Notes: generated by a model not told the origin, from the letters alone. DNA of 64,000 bases from Phyllosticta citribraziliensis (GCF_038025025.1 NW_027117344.1:1116001-1180000), one strand, 5' to 3'; counted from the stretch's first letter, positions 16,307-23,672 are shown. Made by a program: numbers and translations.

Positions 16307-18930
16307 TGTCGTCATCGCACATCCATCCCATCGCCTCCCGTCGACTTTGACGTGGATCGTCGGCGGTGCTTGTCTGTGTGTGGCTGACATGTGTGGTGCT
16401 ACTGTACACCCGGAGGCCGTCTTGCTGTCCGCCCATCCAGCTCGGCTCAGTCACAGAGCAAGAAGATTCTACCTTTCCCTAGCATGGAAAAGACGCACTG
16501 CTGATGGTTGGGCCAATAGCTTGAACCGTGAGCCAATGCTGTCGCCGCACTCACAGCGGCGCTGGGAGGGCGCAGAAGTAAAAGTTGGGATTCTCGCGCG
16601 CGCAGGCGGCCAGCTCTCCAGGGCAGACAGAGTCGTGAAAGAGACTATTGCCTACCGCTACCGCTGCCGGCACTAGTGGATCTGTACCTGACTGACGAAC
16701 TGTATTTGGACTGAGCTGAACAACTGGTCTGCCGCTGCTGAACCAAATGCAGAGGGGAGTGCAGCATGCTTCATCAGGTAGTCAGCTCAACTAGCTCCAC
16801 CTTCTGAAGACACTGAGGTGCAACACTTCGGACGCGCCCGCCTCCAACTCCTTCGCAACTGGCAGCGCTGCCAAGTCCGAGGATGGGAGAGGAGAAGAGG
16901 AAGAAAATTGATGAAAGTCTAGCAGCTCCAGCTTACCAACCCTCGCGACTCGTCGTCCAAACAGACCGACGACTGCAGATTGGCTGGATCGAAGGGATCT
17001 AGAAACGTCAAAGTGTGCCGGTAGGCACCGAATCCGTCCGCCCGTCCCTCGCTCCCTCTACCCGCCCAATTTAGGTTAGCCCCGGGTTTAAACTGGCAAT
17101 GGTCTACCCCAGCCGCCTGTTCCATGCAAACCCATTGCTTGTGCTTGGCCCTGCCATGTTGACGCTATTTCGTCTCAAACCCCTCTCCTCTGGCGTTGGT
17201 GACGAACATGCCAGCTGCTGCTGCCAATTGCTCGTGGTGTGCGCGGCTGCATCTGCAAACTTGCGAGGCGGTGAATCAGTAGAGCGGGCAACGGGTGGGT
17301 TTCCGCGGTTTGATGCAGACAGACAGACAAGACAGTGACAACCAGCGCAGTAAAACATTTGCCGTCTTGGCCGAAGATAACAAACCTGTGTTAGCAATGC
17401 TCTGAGTCACCAGAAGGGAAAAGAGGAAGGAGACCAGTCATCAAAGACGGAACAGAGCAGGCGGAGCAATCGACGCCCGGCTGAAAAATGAATGACCCAG
17501 CTAACCCACAGCAGAAGATGCGAGTCGAACCCGAGCCAAGTTGCTGCGAAGTCCACCACGGACTGACGTCCCAGTCGCAGCGGTACGCTGCGATGCGGCT
17601 TCCAATGCCATGCCATGCGCTGTGCTGCGAGGCAGCCGCGACGCGATGTGTGATGCGATGCGGTGCAACGCACCGCGCACGCGACCTGGCCTGACCTGAC
17701 CCGGCTCACGACCTCGTCTCGCATGGCCCGGCCTGGCCCAACCACGCGCGAGCTGCTTGTCTCGTCAGAGTACATGCGGGGCAAGGCGATAGGACCGACA
17801 GGCACAACAAAGGCACAAGCAATTAAGCATGTCCAGGAACAGGCCATCGTCGATGTTGGTGAAGCGTGCCGCTCCAATTTGGCTCGTGGCTCGACGGCGA
17901 TCATGCCGAGTCAACACGTCGGTGTAGGAGAGGGGAAGCGAGGAACTAGACCGGTCGAGCGGGTGTTGTTGCTGCTGCTGCTACTTAGTGCTGCTGATGG
18001 CGCTGGTCAGTGATTGGCTTCGCTGAGTACAAGGGTGTGGAGTGTCAGAACTGACAACGCCGCCGTCGGTGCCGTTGTCAGCCCGCCAGCTGGTGCATGT
18101 GCTCAGGCACTGGGTCCGCCACGGCAGAAGACGGTAAGAGACGGGGACGATTCGCGAGGGTGGATGGCATTGATGAATGGTTGGATGGACTGTGGGTGCG
18201 GGGTTGGTGATGCGGCTAGGAAGACGCCTGCTGGAGAGTTGCCTTGGGTAGGCGTGCAGTTGCTTGTTCTTTCGCTACTTGTGTGTAGACCGTGCTGCGT
18301 AACTGTACACGCGGACAATATACGCGCACGCGTTGTTTTGTTTTGGTCTTGGAACGTTGTCATTAAGAGCAGACACGGTGAATTTGGACTTATGAACTTG
18401 GCAAGGTTCGGTTGAGAACGGGTTGGAGTTGGCGCCAGGTTGGAACAGGGAGCTTGCTGGAAACCGAATGTGGTTGGCAGCGGAAAAGGAAAAAGGTCAC
18501 GAGGCACCAACAGAGCAGTTGCACTGCTGTGCATGGAAGGGCCATCGACATGATGGCATTCATAACCGCCACTAATGCGATCATGTATGCTGGACATTGC
18601 AGAGCAGTCATATTTGATAGCTGCGAACATGCTAAGCAATAGCACTACCAGCCATTCGTGTCTCTCGGAATGCAGCTATGCGGTTCAATCTTTGAGCATC
18701 CGCTGAAAGGCTTTCAAAATCATGCTCCCTGGTATCGAGATTGCGCCGGAAAGAGAGAGCAGACAAGCTGCTAAGCCGTCGTGAACAGAAGTCCTTGGAA
18801 GTTGCAAGGCCGAGAAAAATACAGAACGCAGCTGAAGTGGGTCTCGTCAATCGTGCTGCCAGTCTTCGAACGAACCAGCGTACGTCCGATCATGCCCGAT
18901 GTTGAGCAAATCTCCGATCCAAAGGCAGGC

Positions 18931-20898
18931 CTAATTTCTGTCATCGTCTTCCTTGAAATTGTTCTCTTTAGCATCATCATCAGAGTCGTTGCTCTTCTCC
19001 CCAGAAGTGTGCCTCCTTTTCTTGGAGGTTTCTTCACCAGCAGTATCAGCTACAGTCGTTTCTTCTTCTCCGCCGTCGCTGTCATCGTGAACATTTTTCA
19101 AGTTTGCAGGTTTCGTCTCGGGTTCCATGGCGGAAATTTCTCCGAGGGTCGAAGATGCTCCTAGCTGTTCTTGAGAAGCTCCTTCTGCAGCTTTGTCCGC
19201 GGTATTGGGACGGTGACTTTGCTCCCGTGCTCTGGATTGACTCCGCTCCAAGAAATGCTCCTTTCTCAGATACGGTGGACGTTTGACGCCGTGGATTTCA
19301 TGGTATTGGTAACACGCATCGCAGATGCGCCTGCCAACCGAGTCAAACTGCCATACCGAAGTATCGGCGGTTTGACAGTTGGAACAAGAATGATCTTCAG
19401 ATTCCTCCTCTTGAGGGTTAGGCGATGCGGTGTCATGTGAGCCTAGCTCTGCTGTACCAACGCCCCGAAGGATTTCGGCAGGTTCACTCTGACTTTTATT
19501 GCCTGGCCTTGACGATGAAGCGCGCTGGAGGACATGAGGGGTGGCGGGTTCTGCAGAAGCATTCTGATTGATCGCTTGCCAACTGCTGCCTTGTGAACGG
19601 GATGGGAGAGAGCCGAGTTGGGATGTTCTATCGTCTGATGGATCGGGCTGGTCCACGACTCGAGGTTTATCAGCACTTGAACCGCCTGTCATATGGGATC
19701 GTTGAGCCGGGTCCACACATGCTTCACATCGAGTGCGCCCATCTTCGTCCAACATGGGAACATAGCCGAGGTACGAGTTGCAGTAGTAGCAGCTTTTCAT
19801 ATCCTTAAGATCCTGCAGTTCGCGTGGTCTGTTCTTCTTGTGTTTCCTAAAGTATAGGTAGCAGGCGCTGCACGCCATTTGTCCGTTCTCATCTTTGCGC
19901 CACTTGGACGTTTTCCTTGCGAAGCAGTTTCGGCATTGAATTTTCGTAGTGGTTGCTTCCAGACTTGAAAGACTTTCGGGCAGTTGATCGAGGCAGCTTT
20001 CACATATTGGGCGATTATCCCGATCCCGGAGCGGAGTCTGGGTGATGGACTCGTTACACCTGTAACAGACGACTTGGGGACGGCGTATTGAGGACGAACC
20101 TTCCGCGTTGACGTCTGGCTTGAGATCCATTTGCTCCTGGTCTTCCACGTCTTCGCCAACCTTTTCAACATGTTCATCTTCCGACTCTAGATCTCCCAGT
20201 TGATCAGGATCATTTCCCGCCAATCGATCCAGCTCGAGCGAGTCTTGTCCCGGAGACCGTGGGTTCGAATTCGAATCAACATCGGGCGAAAGCTCGTCCG
20301 AGTGGTGAACATATCCGTGTTCATCATTGCCAGCGTAATAGTCCGTGTCAGGGCTGTTTGCATGGGCGCCTGTCGTCTTTCGTCGGCCACCACGTGATCG
20401 CTCGCCGTTGTGTGGCAGACCGCCGTCCAGCCCATGCACGGTACGATAATGCTGGAGCAGATTGTCGCTTCTGGAGAAAGCCTTGGAGCAGTTGGAACAC
20501 TTGTGAGGACGTTCACCCATGTCTAAAATCGTCAGCACGTGATGAATTCATCGCAGAATTCAGTACTTACGCGTCGTCTTTTCGTGCCTCACTTTGTGCT
20601 CAACCCTGCTAAATACGCGGTCGCAGAACTGACATTTGCGTCTTTCTTCTTTCCGGACAGCTCTCTGCATGGCAGGTGTGATGTTGGGTGTCTCGAGCAA
20701 AACGGATCGCTCCACTCGTCTGCAGCAACGTTAGAAATCCAGTGACACAGAGGTGATGGAACCAAAGTAGTTGCTTACTTGCTAACATTTGGCTCATTCT
20801 CGTCTGATGTGGATCGAGAGCGTTTGGTTCCTGCTTGGTTGGGGGTATTAGGAGTTGTCTGAGGTTGATTTCTCGCCGGAGAGCGCACTGCTGGTGCC
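18931..20898 (-). CDS. Zinc-finger region with 2 C2H2 and 4 GATA-type fingers; predicted exons 2-4 of a fusion with the upstream amidohydrolase (alternative own ATG at 20670)
   Basis: Exons 20898-20779, 20719-20571 and 20522-18931, joined by introns 20778-20720 and 20570-20523. C2H2 pair CQFCDRVFSRVEHKVRHEKTTH-MGERPHK-CSNCSKAFSRSDNLLQHYRTVH. CX2CX17CX2C motifs start at 20067, 19935, 19791 and 19386. Confidence 0.85.
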
Positions 20899-21026
20899 CT
20901 ATAGCCAGGTGTTGTCAGATTCCGAAAGCCGCTGCTTTGGGCAAGTCAATGCCGAAAAAAGTGGAGACAAGTCAAGGGGGGAAAGGGGGAAGGTTGGGTT
21001 CGAGCAAGGGGCAAGCAGGGCAAAAC

Positions 21027-22013
21027 TCACTCCTGTATGGCAGGAATACGAAGTAGGTTTTGCGCGTTTCTGTAGGCAATAGACTCCAGGTCCCACCGGC
21101 TGACAAGGTCGCTTCGAGCTAGTTCTTCAACAAAGGCCTTGGCCTGTTTGTTCTTGGAAAATGGGTAGTCGACGCTAAGCATGATCTTCTCGATGGGTGT
21201 GACGCGCAGCAGGCAGGCCATTGGTGCCAAAGAGAACATTCCCGACGTGGTGATCCAGATGTTGTTTTTCCAGACGTGCCTCAGGTCGAACTCGCGACCA
21301 CTCCATTCGGGGTCCTTGATAGTAGAGGTTACGTCGATGATGCGATCCAACTGGAATGGGAGCATTTCGCCCATATGGCCGATGATTATCTTCAATCTAG
21401 GAAAGCAATCGAAGACGCCGGCAGCAAACAGGCGCAGGATGTGCAGACCAGTTTCGCTGTGCCATCCCCAGCCGAAAGTACCAAGGAGCTGGGCAAGGGG
21501 TTCCGGATATTCGCCGTCGTAGAGAGCTCGCTTGGTGTCATCAGTCGGCAAGGTGGGGTGAAGGTAAATGGGCACGTCGAGGTCCTGGGCAGCAGCAAAG
21601 AGGGGCCAGAACTTGGGACCATCATAAAAGTGGCCATTGCAGTGGTTGCTGATCAGGGCGCCAACGAAGCCGAGCTCACGGACACAGCGTTTGAGCTCCT
21701 TGGCGGCTTGCTGGGGTTCGCGCAGGGGAAGCAGGGCAAAGCCGGCATAGCGTGAGGGGTGGCGTTTGGTGATGGAGGCCAGGCGGTCATTTACGGCGCG
21801 TGACATGTCAGGAGTGGGATTGACGGGGGTGTGGGACAGGACCTGGAGGGCGATGTTGTTGTCGTCCATGTCGTCGAGACGGTCGTCGCCGAGCGAGTAG
21901 AGGCGGTCCATGATGGATTTTGGGAAGGGCGGCGGGCGAGCATCTTGCGGCGACGACTCAGGGAGCAGGCGCGCGTCCTGGAAGTGTTCCTCGAGGGCGA
22001 TGAGCGGAATCAT
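21027..22013 (-). CDS. Amidohydrolase-2 family metal-dependent decarboxylase (2,3-dihydroxybenzoate/gamma-resorcylate decarboxylase-like); unspliced 328-aa form
   Basis: ATG 22013 (MIPLIALEEHF). Metal-binding and catalytic motifs ExH, IYLHP, IIGHMGE, ITTSG and SVDYPF are all intact; ends NAQNLLRIPAIQE*. Confidence 0.9.
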   Translation of the reverse strand: MIPLIALEEHFQDARLLPESSPQDARPPPFPKSIMDRLYSLGDDRLDDMDDNNIALQVLSHTPVNPTPDMSRAVNDRLASITKRHPSRYAGFALLPLREPQQAAKELKRCVRELGFVGALISNHCNGHFYDGPKFWPLFAAAQDLDVPIYLHPTLPTDDTKRALYDGEYPEPLAQLLGTFGWGWHSETGLHILRLFAAGVFDCFPRLKIIIGHMGEMLPFQLDRIIDVTSTIKDPEWSGREFDLRHVWKNNIWITTSGMFSLAPMACLLRVTPIEKIMLSVDYPFSKNKQAKAFVEELARSDLVSRWDLESIAYRNAQNLLRIPAIQE

Positions 22014-22548
22014 GTTGGCGAAGGCGACTCTTGTGCGAGCGCCCTTGGTGGAGACGGGAACCTGCGCAAGACATGCAAACGGGACGGAGAGGTCAGGTTG
22101 GCGGATGGAGGTGGTGTTGAAGAGGGAGAGAGAAAGAGAGAGAGGGGAGAAGGAAAGAGAGAGAGAGAGCACAAGCGAGGGGAAGGGAAGGGAAGGAGAC
22201 GAGAGAAAGACTGGACTGGCTGGAACCGGCGAGGAGAGGAGAGGAGGGCGGAGGGGAGACAACCAAGTCAGGCTCAGGCTCAGGCTCAGGACGCGGCGGA
22301 CGGCACAAAAGAGGGGGAGGGGAAAGTGTGTTGGGTGCACCGAGGAAGCGCAAAGCGCATAGGGGTTCAAGGGGGCAGTAGTGTAGGTGAGGGGCTGCCT
22401 CGCGACCGCCCCAGCTGCCAGCTGCCAGCTCCCAGCTCCCTCCATGTGCGCCTCCGCCTCCGCCTCCGCCTCCGATTCATGCATCACCTCCGACTCTCCG
22501 CCATCGCCATCGCGCTCCATTCGGCACTCCCACACCACCTCACCCGCA

Positions 22549-23672
22549 ATGCTTTCCTCCACGGCCGCCGACCAGTCTCGCTTCGCCATCCACGACGCCT
22601 GTCGCGAAGGCAAGAGTATGCACACCTTGCCCCCCCAAAACAACGTCACCGACCCACGCACGCACGCTAACCTGCCCTCCACATCTAGCCGTGGTAGTCG
22701 AGTCGCTGCTAAACGTATGCCTTGTCGCGGTCCCAATCACCAAATCCCAACCGCTCAAAACCCCCTTCGCAGGCAAATCCAAAGCTCGCCAACCGCAGAG
22801 ATGATGACGACCGCCTCCCAATCCACTGGGCCGTGTCCTACAGCCACATGCCCATAGTCAAGTTGCTCGTGCAGACCAAAAACTTCGACGTCGATGAGCA
22901 GGTACGGCCGTGTTGCTTGGAAAACGAGGCTCTCGCCCGCTAAGACTGCGCGTGCTGCAGGACGGTTCTGGCTGGACGCCGCTCATGATGGCCGCAAGCC
23001 TCAAGGACTCGGACGAGCTCGTCGACCTGCTCATCTCACGCGGCGCAGACGTGAACATCAAGAGTATGCCAGCCATGCTCGACTTGTGATGCGCACCAAC
23101 TGACCTGCGCTGCCGCAGACAACAACGGTAACGTACGAGCCTCCCCTCGCCCCTCTCGCCGCAAACGCCCCGCCAATGACCCTGCAACAGACGGCGCTCC
23201 ATTTCACAGCCTCCAAAAGCAATCTCGACATAGCCCGCAAGCTTGTCGAAAACAAGGCTTCGGCGCGCGTCAAGGATAAGCGTGGCCAGCTACCCCTGCA
23301 CCGCGCTGCCGCCGCCGGTTCGGTCCCCCTGATCAAATTACTCTTGCAGGCCAAGAGCCCCGCGAATGCGACTGACATTGACGGCATGACTGCGCTGCAT
23401 CACGGTGAGTCAGGAAAAAATCGGTTGCTCTACTCCGCTAACACGCGCCAGCCATCGCCGAGGGCCATGGTGACGCGGCGGTAGAATTGCTCAAAGCCGG
23501 CGCAGAACCAGACAAAAAGAACAGTGATGGCGTCATCGCCATTGACCTTGCACCTGACGCAAAGGTACCGTGCAGCCCCAGCTTAATTGGCGCTTTGCGA
23601 CGCTGACGTCCAAAACAGATTGCTCAATACATATTCCACAGTGCCGAACTTGAAGGCATCGAGCTGGCATAG
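22549..23672 (+). CDS. NAS6: Ankyrin-repeat 26S proteasome assembly chaperone (gankyrin/PSMD10)
   Basis: Eight exons (22549-22615, 22689-22714, 22773-22901, 22961-23064, 23119-23132, 23191-23404, 23452-23564, 23619-23672) give tandem ankyrin repeats: FAIHDACREGK, RLPIHWAVS, GWTPLMMAAS, TALHFTASK, QLPLHRAAAAG, MTALHHAIAEGH. Confidence 0.85.

Follow-up and report, generated by a model that had tools for sequence, protein, structure and literature searches.

Covalent fusions of an enzyme with a transcription factor are the standard means by which bacteria link metabolite level to transcription, and they are rare in eukaryotes; the prokaryotic enzyme-regulator fusions, or trigger enzymes, include PutA and BirA. 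Two further prokaryotic regulators, BzdR (PMC3602430) and RbkR (PMC5397151), are reported to combine an enzyme fold with a DNA-binding domain. Here we describe a locus of Phyllosticta citribraziliensis (Dothideomycetes, Botryosphaeriales, Phyllostictaceae) where splicing joins an amidohydrolase-type decarboxylase in frame with two C2H2 zinc fingers, so that an enzyme fold and a DNA-binding domain are found in one polypeptide at the level of spliced RNA and of a conserved open reading frame (ORF). The locus occupies positions 22013 to 18931 of the minus strand in a stretch of 64,000 nucleotides (GCF_038025025.1, NW_027117344.1:1116001-1180000), which is called the window below. In our judgement it is very probable that this spliced, conserved enzyme-C2H2 ORF is real.

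The enzyme ORF opens at ATG 22013 and runs for 328 codons, after which a TGA follows in frame (21029-21027, read on the minus strand). This TGA lies within the donor hexamer of the first intron (...ATA CAG GA/GTGAGT, with the donor G at 21030), and the same intron has a CTGAC branch-point-type motif at 20918-20914 and a TAG acceptor at 20901-20899. Four introns were recognized at the locus, each of them with GT..AG ends, and their lengths are 132, 59, 48 and 62 nucleotides (nt). When the first three are removed, exons of 983, 120, 149 and 1592 nt make up an open frame of 947 amino acids (aa); retention of intron 1 would give a stand-alone enzyme of 328 aa, owing to the in-frame TGA. Intron 3 is certain from its sequence alone, because its removal restores the H-x4-H of the first C2H2 finger and the TGEKP-like inter-finger linker HMGERPHKC. 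Out of 21 sequencing runs found, four (X1, X2, X20 and X21) were compared with the locus as assembled contigs, not as raw reads, and the parts of the gene are the following.

22014..22249, minus strand: 5' untranslated region (UTR); X2 contig cover at 21701-22114 and 22209-22249, loose end at 22249
21031..22013, minus strand: exon 1, complete Amidohydro_2 domain (Pfam 2.1e-38), residues 1-327 plus 2 nt
20899..21030, minus strand: intron 1, 132 nt, GTGAGT..TAG; joint in X2 and X20
20779..20898, minus strand: exon 2, 120 nt, 40-codon Pro/Asn/Ser-rich bridge with a basic KRSRS patch; contigs and conservation
20720..20778, minus strand: intron 2, 59 nt, GTAAGC..CAG; joint 20719->20779 in X2 and X20
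20571..20719, minus strand: exon 3, last 16 bridge codons, ATG 20670 and C2H2 finger 1 through its third zinc ligand
20523..20570, minus strand: intron 3, 48 nt, GTAAGT..TAG, interrupting C2H2 finger 1; contig joint
20100..20522, minus strand: exon 4a, final His of finger 1, C2H2 finger 2, basic stretch, acidic low-complexity region
20038..20099, minus strand: fourth intron or 'exitron', 62 nt, GTTCGT..CAG; joint 20037->20100 in X2 and X20
20015..20017, minus strand: TAA stop of the fully spliced reading (565-aa product); coordinate read from the sequence
18931..20037, minus strand: exon 4b, four C-x2-C-x17-C-x2-C fingers, disordered tail, TAG stop at 18933-18931

The junction between enzyme and fingers is carried by RNA. 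X2 agrees with the window with 0 mismatches over 3.4 kb, and its 3492-nt contig consists of 18600-20037, 20100-20522, 20571-20719, 20779-20897 and 21030-21535; as the four GT..AG introns are missing from it, the contig must come from spliced RNA. The intron-1 joint is read there as 20897->21030, with the cut shifted by +1. Another X2 contig extends over 21701-22249, with adapter-like letters at its end (22249), thus the 5' part of the enzyme gene is transcribed as well; the CT-rich tract 22115-22208 was passed over as a repeat in the placement of the X2 contigs. X20, which is recorded as RNA-seq, represents a relative of about 92% identity (roughly 6-10% other letters per piece), and its 2562-nt contig has the same four joints as X2; one letter differs at the junction of the first, where 132 nt are again skipped in net terms without any change of frame. 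Both of the two runs having spliced contigs across the site thus show the junction 21031^20898. The cover of X1 is restricted to 18600-19529 (8 of 30 bins) and is silent on the junction. X21 covers 30 of 30 bins, and since the introns are included, it was read as DNA of several relatives. Three X21 joints (20721->20873, 20897->21100 and 22083->22295) were disregarded, their short sides being 22-25 letters at a minimum likeness of 85.

The indels of the relatives show the pattern expected for a coding exon 2 and a coding junction. Five are listed in introns 1 and 2, with sizes of 1, 1, 2, 1 and 1 nt, all non-multiples of three (those of X21 in intron 2 being 1, 1 and 2 nt), and the only two listed within exons are +12 nt (X21) and -9 nt (X20); the table has one further row beyond those listed. 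An X21 relative carries a 12-nt tandem in-frame duplication (four codons) directly before the intron-1 donor, at window position 21032, and further X21 indels fall in the 5' region.

An earlier, sequence-only reading of this DNA had proposed that splicing removes the stop of the amidohydrolase and links the enzyme in frame with a zinc-finger protein, and this proposal is upheld by the RNA junction, the conserved bridge and an equivalent fusion in five genera. The features it described are confirmed to exist: the coordinates, donor, branch point, acceptor, exon lengths and 947-aa reading were all found as it had given them, and introns 20778-20720 and 20570-20523, which it had called canonical and in phase, lie where it had placed them and have joints in the X2 and X20 contigs. 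Exon 2 has no in-frame ATG, and next to the out-of-frame ATG 20797 that had been pointed out there is a second one at 20788. Reads across 21031^20898 had been suggested as a check, and this junction is what the spliced contigs of X2 and X20 contain.

The bridge, a segment of 169 nt made up of exon 2 and the initial 49 nt of exon 3, is conserved as a peptide. Its identity is 38/41 in P. citricarpa and 31/40 in P. capitalensis, in the latter with a one-codon in-frame gap, and the residues of exon 3 before the Met of ATG 20670 are identical in P. citricarpa without exception (16/16). The exon 2 bridge is predicted to be disordered, with a predicted local distance difference test score (pLDDT) below 50 at residues 327-381, and the KRSRS patch is the basic stretch that had been likened to a nuclear localization signal. 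Intron 1 is pyrimidine-rich, is 2-3 times as long as the other three (132 versus 48-62 nt) and resembles the CT-rich tract upstream of the enzyme ATG (22100-22330); this segment (20899-21030) may be the relic of a former intergenic promoter or a present internal one.

Public gene models of the locus were compared within the genus. The 947-aa reading is letter-for-letter identical with XP_066654523.1 / KAK7536107.1 (P0010), an "uncharacterized protein" of P. citribraziliensis. Eleven Phyllosticta models fall into three clusters, and the intron-1 junction is used in six of them: four (947, 949, 1081 and 697 aa, the last three from P. citricarpa) join the enzyme to the fingers, and two P. capitalensis sequences of 370 aa each (several accessions) have exon 1 spliced to exon 2 and end within the unspliced intron 2. 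The other five (549, 515, 445, 399 and the window's own 399 aa) are zinc-finger-only, and the window's own model (P0001) starts at ATG 20130 and holds the GATA part only. A 328-aa stand-alone enzyme is found in none of the eleven. Consecutive accession numbers on one contig suggest that the enzyme and finger halves are adjacent in P. capitalensis too. An unspliced ORF of the P. capitalensis type (P0012) reads ...LQE and then 29 further residues, with no stop at the donor; the immediate stop is thus not conserved, and the TGA seen here is a by-product of the GTGAGT donor in this phase. Altogether at least eight different annotator models of the same gene exist, because the stop lies in the donor and a frame-shifting coding intron precedes the extra module. 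A long ORF in another frame crosses the acidic region on the minus strand (20187-20522); this frame is used in the 445-aa P. citricarpa model P0006, which arrives at the GATA part through splicing of the 62-nt intron, and the equivalent reading in the window, from an ATG near 20178, has 394 aa and is probably an annotation artefact of GA-rich codons.

Outside Phyllosticta, the relatives of the enzyme were taken as the best 120 of 7337, and fusions longer than 574 aa were not looked for directly. Within this set the closest proteins (54-61% identity) all belong to the Botryosphaeriaceae and are extended. The twelve named Botryosphaeriaceae models form four clusters: seven have 459-508 aa (Botryosphaeria dothidea in two strains, Lasiodiplodia theobromae, L. 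hormozganensis, Diplodia corticola, D. intermedia and Neofusicoccum ribis), two have 411 aa (Macrophomina phaseolina and D. seriata; P0013, P0292), and three, with 329-330 aa, are enzyme-only and end at ...QE, that is, at the exon-1 boundary. The 411-aa models end in ...HEKTTRK after finger 1, and since these ends match the unspliced intron-3 reading of the window, the position of intron 3 is shared. All six of the seven long models that were aligned contain the enzyme, a bridge of about 50 residues, both C2H2 fingers and a tail of the form ...SFFEGLQTYA..EAQE.W., and in none of these six is there a GATA part; the 565-aa Phyllosticta protein described below has the same architecture as these proteins of about 500 aa. 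Their C2H2 fingers are clearly orthologous to those of the window. Their bridge is conserved between genera (KRxxGEGVN..RKKRGRPPK) and differs from the Phyllosticta bridge, yet it is open. In addition, a complete fused ORF of 503 aa, from Met to the conserved tail, was found on a 2398-nt Neofusicoccum-like contig (P0298). The contig is probably cDNA, because other ORFs from the same source read straight through introns (P0012), and it would then be independent RNA support for the full-length fusion in Neofusicoccum.

Orthologues in other orders (Aspergillus, Phaeoacremonium, Colletotrichum, Lentinula and others) have 50-56% identity and 318-329 aa, and they end a few residues before ...IQE. 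A search of the ESM Atlas with the Diplodia fused protein gave no usable match. Over-long relatives of other kinds were also noticed: P0033 of Aspergillus homomorphus (560 aa) combines PF04909 with PF00651 (BTB) and is either another fusion or a merged model, and P0099 (510 aa) and P0121 (428 aa) exceed the usual length as well. Because the same enzyme-C2H2 architecture is modelled across Botryosphaeriales, the fusion is, as judged from these sequences, older than Phyllosticta and maintained in the order, and not a one-off read-through. The most economical history would be that a free decarboxylase and a downstream two-finger gene were fused in the ancestor of Botryosphaeriales as the stop and the spacer became an intron, and that the GATA module, placed behind a frame-shifting intron, was a later addition in Phyllosticta.

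That module depends on the fourth intron. The 62-nt intron (20099-20038) is removed in the RNA contigs of both X2 and X20, and the P. citricarpa models P0009 and P0006 (697 and 445 aa) splice it too. As 62 is not a multiple of three, its splicing shifts the frame and ends the ORF ahead of all four GATA-type fingers: seven more codons are read before TAA 20017-20015. The product supported by RNA thus has 565 aa and consists of the decarboxylase, the bridge as linker, two C2H2 fingers and an acidic tail, with zero GATA fingers; exon 4b is in frame with exon 4a only when 20099-20038 is retained. The sequence-only reading had taken exon 4 (1592 nt) as uninterrupted and had overlooked this GT..AG intron, so from its six-finger 947-aa fusion the in-frame splice of enzyme to zinc fingers stands, and the GATA part is lost in both RNA contigs.

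Nevertheless, the retained reading is probably also used, to judge from its conservation. Of the 21 residues encoded by the 62-nt intron 20 are identical in P. citricarpa, and likewise in P. capitalensis; the GATA region following it is 79% and 66% identical in these two species, and the tail 57% and 41%. The intron encodes the first CxxC of C4 finger 1, in a pattern (CY.CN...) which parallels finger 3. Since its peptide is so conserved and forms half of a finger, translation of the retained form can be argued; this may be accounted for by intron retention in a long transcript, by an independent start at the conserved ATG 20130, or by both. The six-finger 947-aa protein would at best be an alternative isoform, and the chances that it is made at all seem to us evenly balanced.

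The enzyme part is well defined. Pfam Amidohydro_2 (PF04909) matches it with 133.2 bits against a cut-off of 26.4, over profile positions 23-289 of 289. Forty PDB sequences match, the best being an uncharacterised amidohydrolase (3nur, 3.3e-56), followed by gamma-resorcylate decarboxylases (3s4t, 3e-51; 2dvt, 1e-46), a 2,3-dihydroxybenzoate decarboxylase (6m53, 2e-41), 5-carboxyvanillate decarboxylases (5e-37) and salicylate decarboxylases (5e-36), and more distantly by ACMSD (1e-24) and uracil-5-carboxylate decarboxylase (5e-15). Residues E8, H10, H152, H213 and D282, which we take to be the metal and catalytic positions of the Amidohydro_2 family, are the same in all ten proteins aligned, whether fused or free, in keeping with the intact ExH, H, H, D site noted earlier from the sequence. 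Because these positions are invariant across fused and free proteins, the domain looks like a working enzyme rather than a decayed relic. It is not a stand-alone protein of about 320-350 aa here, as the stop is spliced out and the fused models have 459-1081 aa. The AlphaFold model of the 947-aa form (mean pLDDT 51.6, predicted template modelling score (pTM) 0.40, 10-row alignment) is good only for the barrel and the linker disorder: the barrel is confident, with blocks up to pLDDT 97, the finger modules are small and moderately confident, and pLDDT falls below 50 at residues 448-566, 694-794 and 829-947 besides the bridge, which gives a beads-on-a-string picture.

The two C2H2 and four GATA-type fingers proposed earlier are all present by pattern count. 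The two C-x2-C-x12-H-x4-H fingers are at residues 397-418 and 426-447; taken singly they reach 15.7 and 23.6 bits in Pfam, under the cut-off of 25.2, and their orthologues carry precomputed PF00096 and PF13465. A PDB search with the pair returned generic poly-zinc-finger matches and no subfamily (ZNF568, CTCF, Zif268, and ADR1, 2adr, with an E-value of 1.9e-10). The four C-x2-C-x17-C-x2-C fingers (residues 570-594, 614-638, 662-686 and 797-821) alternate between non-canonical and canonical forms, and two of the four match Pfam GATA (PF00320; 48.2 bits against a cut-off of 26.8, in two stretches). Among the best 150 hits of a zinc-finger profile search, relatives of the GATA part were three Phyllosticta-like entries only; the other 147 were animal-type poly-C2H2 proteins matching at profile positions 2-75, and weaker relatives may rank lower. 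In a P. citricarpa-like fragment of 114 aa (P0136), the residues just before finger 4 follow directly on the initial half of C4 finger 3. The corresponding skip in the window, 19761-19405 on the minus strand, has GT..AG ends, 357 nt and keeps the frame, so the GATA module could have a further coding intron there; this skip was not seen in the X2 or X20 contigs.

Our preferred explanation is that the fully spliced transcript is translated into a working enzyme-C2H2 fusion, and as a whole we consider it likely. The protein would be nuclear, as suggested by the basic patches in the bridge (KRSRS here, an RGRP-containing one in Botryosphaeriaceae). The barrel would bind, and probably still decarboxylate, a phenolic acid of the salicylate, dihydroxybenzoate or orsellinate class, and its occupancy or oligomeric state might modulate promoter binding by the C2H2 pair, allosterically or through oligomerisation, the latter being typical of the solved members of this enzyme family. 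The output would be set by splicing: the 328-aa enzyme upon retention of intron 1, the 565-aa enzyme-C2H2 protein upon full splicing, and the 947-aa enzyme-C2H2-GATA protein upon retention of the 62 nt; of these three only the 565-aa form was seen in the available RNA. The sensing mechanism is put forward tentatively and is less than probable. Doubtful, too, is its complete form, namely a splice-programmable eukaryotic one-component regulator whose barrel would sense and turn over a plant phenolic acid (salicylate, dihydroxybenzoate) and gate the C2H2 pair, with three outputs, kept since the ancestor of Botryosphaeriales. A bolder variant, where a DNA-tethered decarboxylase would act on a carboxylated base or on a chromatin-bound substrate, has little support. 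Botryosphaeriales is an order of woody-plant endophytes and latent pathogens, and salicylate and related acids are abundant defence signals within woody plants. If the barrel does control the fingers, these fungi could have a route to read host phenolics, and the protein would be a compact ligand-responsive eukaryotic regulator.

Other explanations of the same data have to be weighed. The main product could be the 947-aa protein with the decarboxylase and all six fingers, as its ORF is open throughout and identical to the RefSeq model, P. citricarpa has models of 949 and 1081 aa, and the 62-nt peptide is conserved (20/21) as the half of C4 finger 1 that parallels finger 3. However, the spliced contigs of X2 and X20 remove the 62 nt and neither run has a retaining contig, two P. 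citricarpa models (697 and 445 aa) do the same, the Botryosphaeriaceae orthologues are without the GATA part, and among the best 150 profile hits it has no relative beyond Phyllosticta-like sequences; it is rather unlikely, then, that this is the main product. At the other extreme, there could be two ordinary neighbouring genes, one for an enzyme of 328 aa and the other for a zinc-finger protein with its start at ATG 20670 or 20130, the junction being a by-product of transcriptional read-through. The TGA after the enzyme ORF, the Pfam domain complete ahead of it, the position of ATG 20670 twelve codons before finger 1 where the P. capitalensis annotation is split (P0011), the 399-aa GATA-only model annotated in the window itself, and the long (132 nt), pyrimidine-rich, promoter-like intron 1 would all fit such an arrangement. 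On the other hand, three Phyllosticta species share a bridge conserved at the protein level, five further genera have a different but open one that is likewise conserved, the indels of the relatives keep the frame, a stop at the donor is missing from the P. capitalensis-type sequence, the contigs of both RNA runs keep the spliced form, and the upstream ATGs 20797 and 20788 open a reading which overlaps ATG 20670. Read-through would be expected to leave an unconserved junction with no coding constraint between the halves, and what was found is a conserved bridge with in-frame indels, so we hold the two-gene explanation to be very improbable.

A zinc-finger transcript might also start from an internal promoter near 21.55 kb, and its product would then have either a C-terminal barrel fragment from Met214 or no barrel at all. 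A weak hint of this is that the RNA contigs of two studies stop at 21535/21554 without a loose end while the DNA-like run continues; the depth of the upstream X2 contig is also lower (30.9 versus 53.3). But a hole in the cover proves nothing, the depth is a per-contig mean, the single 2398-nt Neofusicoccum-like contig (P0298) contains the complete 503-aa fused ORF, and a barrel deprived of residues 1-213 would lose three invariant metal ligands, which is at odds with conservation throughout the order; an internal start is accordingly improbable. Finally, the fusion could be real with its barrel serving as an oligomerisation or scaffold module, or as a chromatin-tethered enzyme, and with no ligand sensing. 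The solved members of the family are oligomeric, no pathway genes are found nearby, and the superfamily includes uracil-5-carboxylate decarboxylase (E 5e-15). The metal and catalytic positions are nevertheless invariant as in the free enzymes, arguing for retained chemistry, and free hydroxybenzoates are the substrates of the closest relatives that have been characterised (E 3e-51 to 2e-41), thus we regard this alternative as unlikely.

The enzyme-C2H2 fusion protein has points against it as well. When the bridge was shuffled 20000 times, the required frame was still open in 2671 cases (13%), so openness of the bridge alone is not significant; the fusion is established by the RNA joints and by conservation across genera, not by the open frame. 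Gene models are predictions, and three of the twelve from Botryosphaeriaceae and all those from P. capitalensis split the locus. In this species no single contig runs from ATG 22013 to the zinc fingers, as X2 has a hole at 21536-21700, and the RNA contigs of X2 and X20 end at 21535/21554, which leaves room for a start inside the enzyme gene. Contigs show neither the ends nor the levels of RNA, and a contig over two genes proves no single transcript. The intron-retaining 947-aa mRNA and an unspliced stand-alone enzyme mRNA were not seen among the X2/X20 contigs, and since contigs drop rare variants, missing isoforms prove nothing. Translation, DNA binding, ligand and activity are proposed on the strength of sequence and spliced RNA. 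The neighbourhood is of housekeeping character, and contains no catabolic or biosynthetic cluster hinting at a target pathway.

The scan of this neighbourhood comprised 30 ORFs, nine of them with Pfam matches, all of housekeeping types apart from one weak, chance-like match; the neighbours include an E1-like ThiF protein, a short-chain dehydrogenase, ankyrin repeats, TMF, an HMG box protein and Sld5. The ankyrin-repeat gene (22713-23100, plus strand) stands head-to-head with the fusion gene, and the two have a common upstream region of about 700 bp. At the other end, RNA-derived cover continues beyond the TAG at 18933-18931 into 17350-18930 of the window: an X2 contig extends 857 nt past 18600, and an X1 contig with a depth of about 1400-6600, which on the other side reaches only up to 19529, extends 1250 nt past 18600. 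This cover could represent a long 3' UTR or the transcript of an overlapping neighbour; the ORFs in 17350-18930 have no Pfam match.

The architecture is not new to the databases. The sequence-only reading knew of no described protein built in this way, but models of 947, 949 and about 500 aa are already present in GenBank, RefSeq and UniProt under uninformative names ("uncharacterized protein", "amidohydrolase 2", "Decarboxylase orsB", "C2H2-type domain-containing protein"). In the full-text literature, subscription journals and supplements aside, no description of such a fusion was found for this enzyme family. The locus is a clear case of splicing deciding domain composition, with a stop codon within a donor and a frame-shifting coding intron before an extra DNA-binding module.

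Compared with the ortho-hydroxybenzoate decarboxylases (2dvt/3s4t, 6m53, 6jqw), the Phyllosticta protein has the same full-length domain (E 3e-51 to 5e-36) with invariant site residues; here, however, the stop is spliced out and 237 residues of linker and fingers follow (619 in the long form), and both substrate and activity are predicted. With the Msn2/CreA/Adr1-type fungal regulators it has in common two tandem fingers and a TGEKP-like linker (HMGERPHKC), whereas those factors are not fused to enzymes, and the best PDB matches of the pair are generic poly-zinc-finger proteins. The contact residues of the fingers, R-E-H-R and R-D-N-Q, are presumably Msn2-like and would predict an AGGGG-type site resembling the stress response element (STRE). 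The four C-x2-C-x17-C-x2-C modules, two of which match Pfam GATA, resemble the fingers of GATA factors, but in this gene they stand downstream of the C2H2 pair, are in frame only with the 62-nt intron retained, and were seen only in Phyllosticta-like sequences. Exitrons, a term in use in the literature (PMC5602073), lie as introns within coding exons, and the protein changes when they are spliced; the 62-nt element is like them in lying in conserved coding sequence, having GT..AG ends and being removed in RNA. As its length is not a multiple of three, its splicing truncates the protein instead of deleting an in-frame segment. An enzyme that plays a part in transcription is also reported from a filamentous ascomycete; that enzyme has no DNA-binding domain fused to it, whereas canonical DNA-binding fingers are covalently joined to the enzyme here. 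The prokaryotic fusions (PutA, BirA, BzdR and RbkR) unite an enzyme fold and a DNA-binding domain in one polypeptide, and the same logic is presumed here. Those proteins are bacterial or archaeal and use helix-turn-helix (HTH) or ribbon-helix-helix (RHH) domains, whereas the Phyllosticta protein is eukaryotic, carries C2H2 fingers with or without GATA fingers, and is assembled by splicing.

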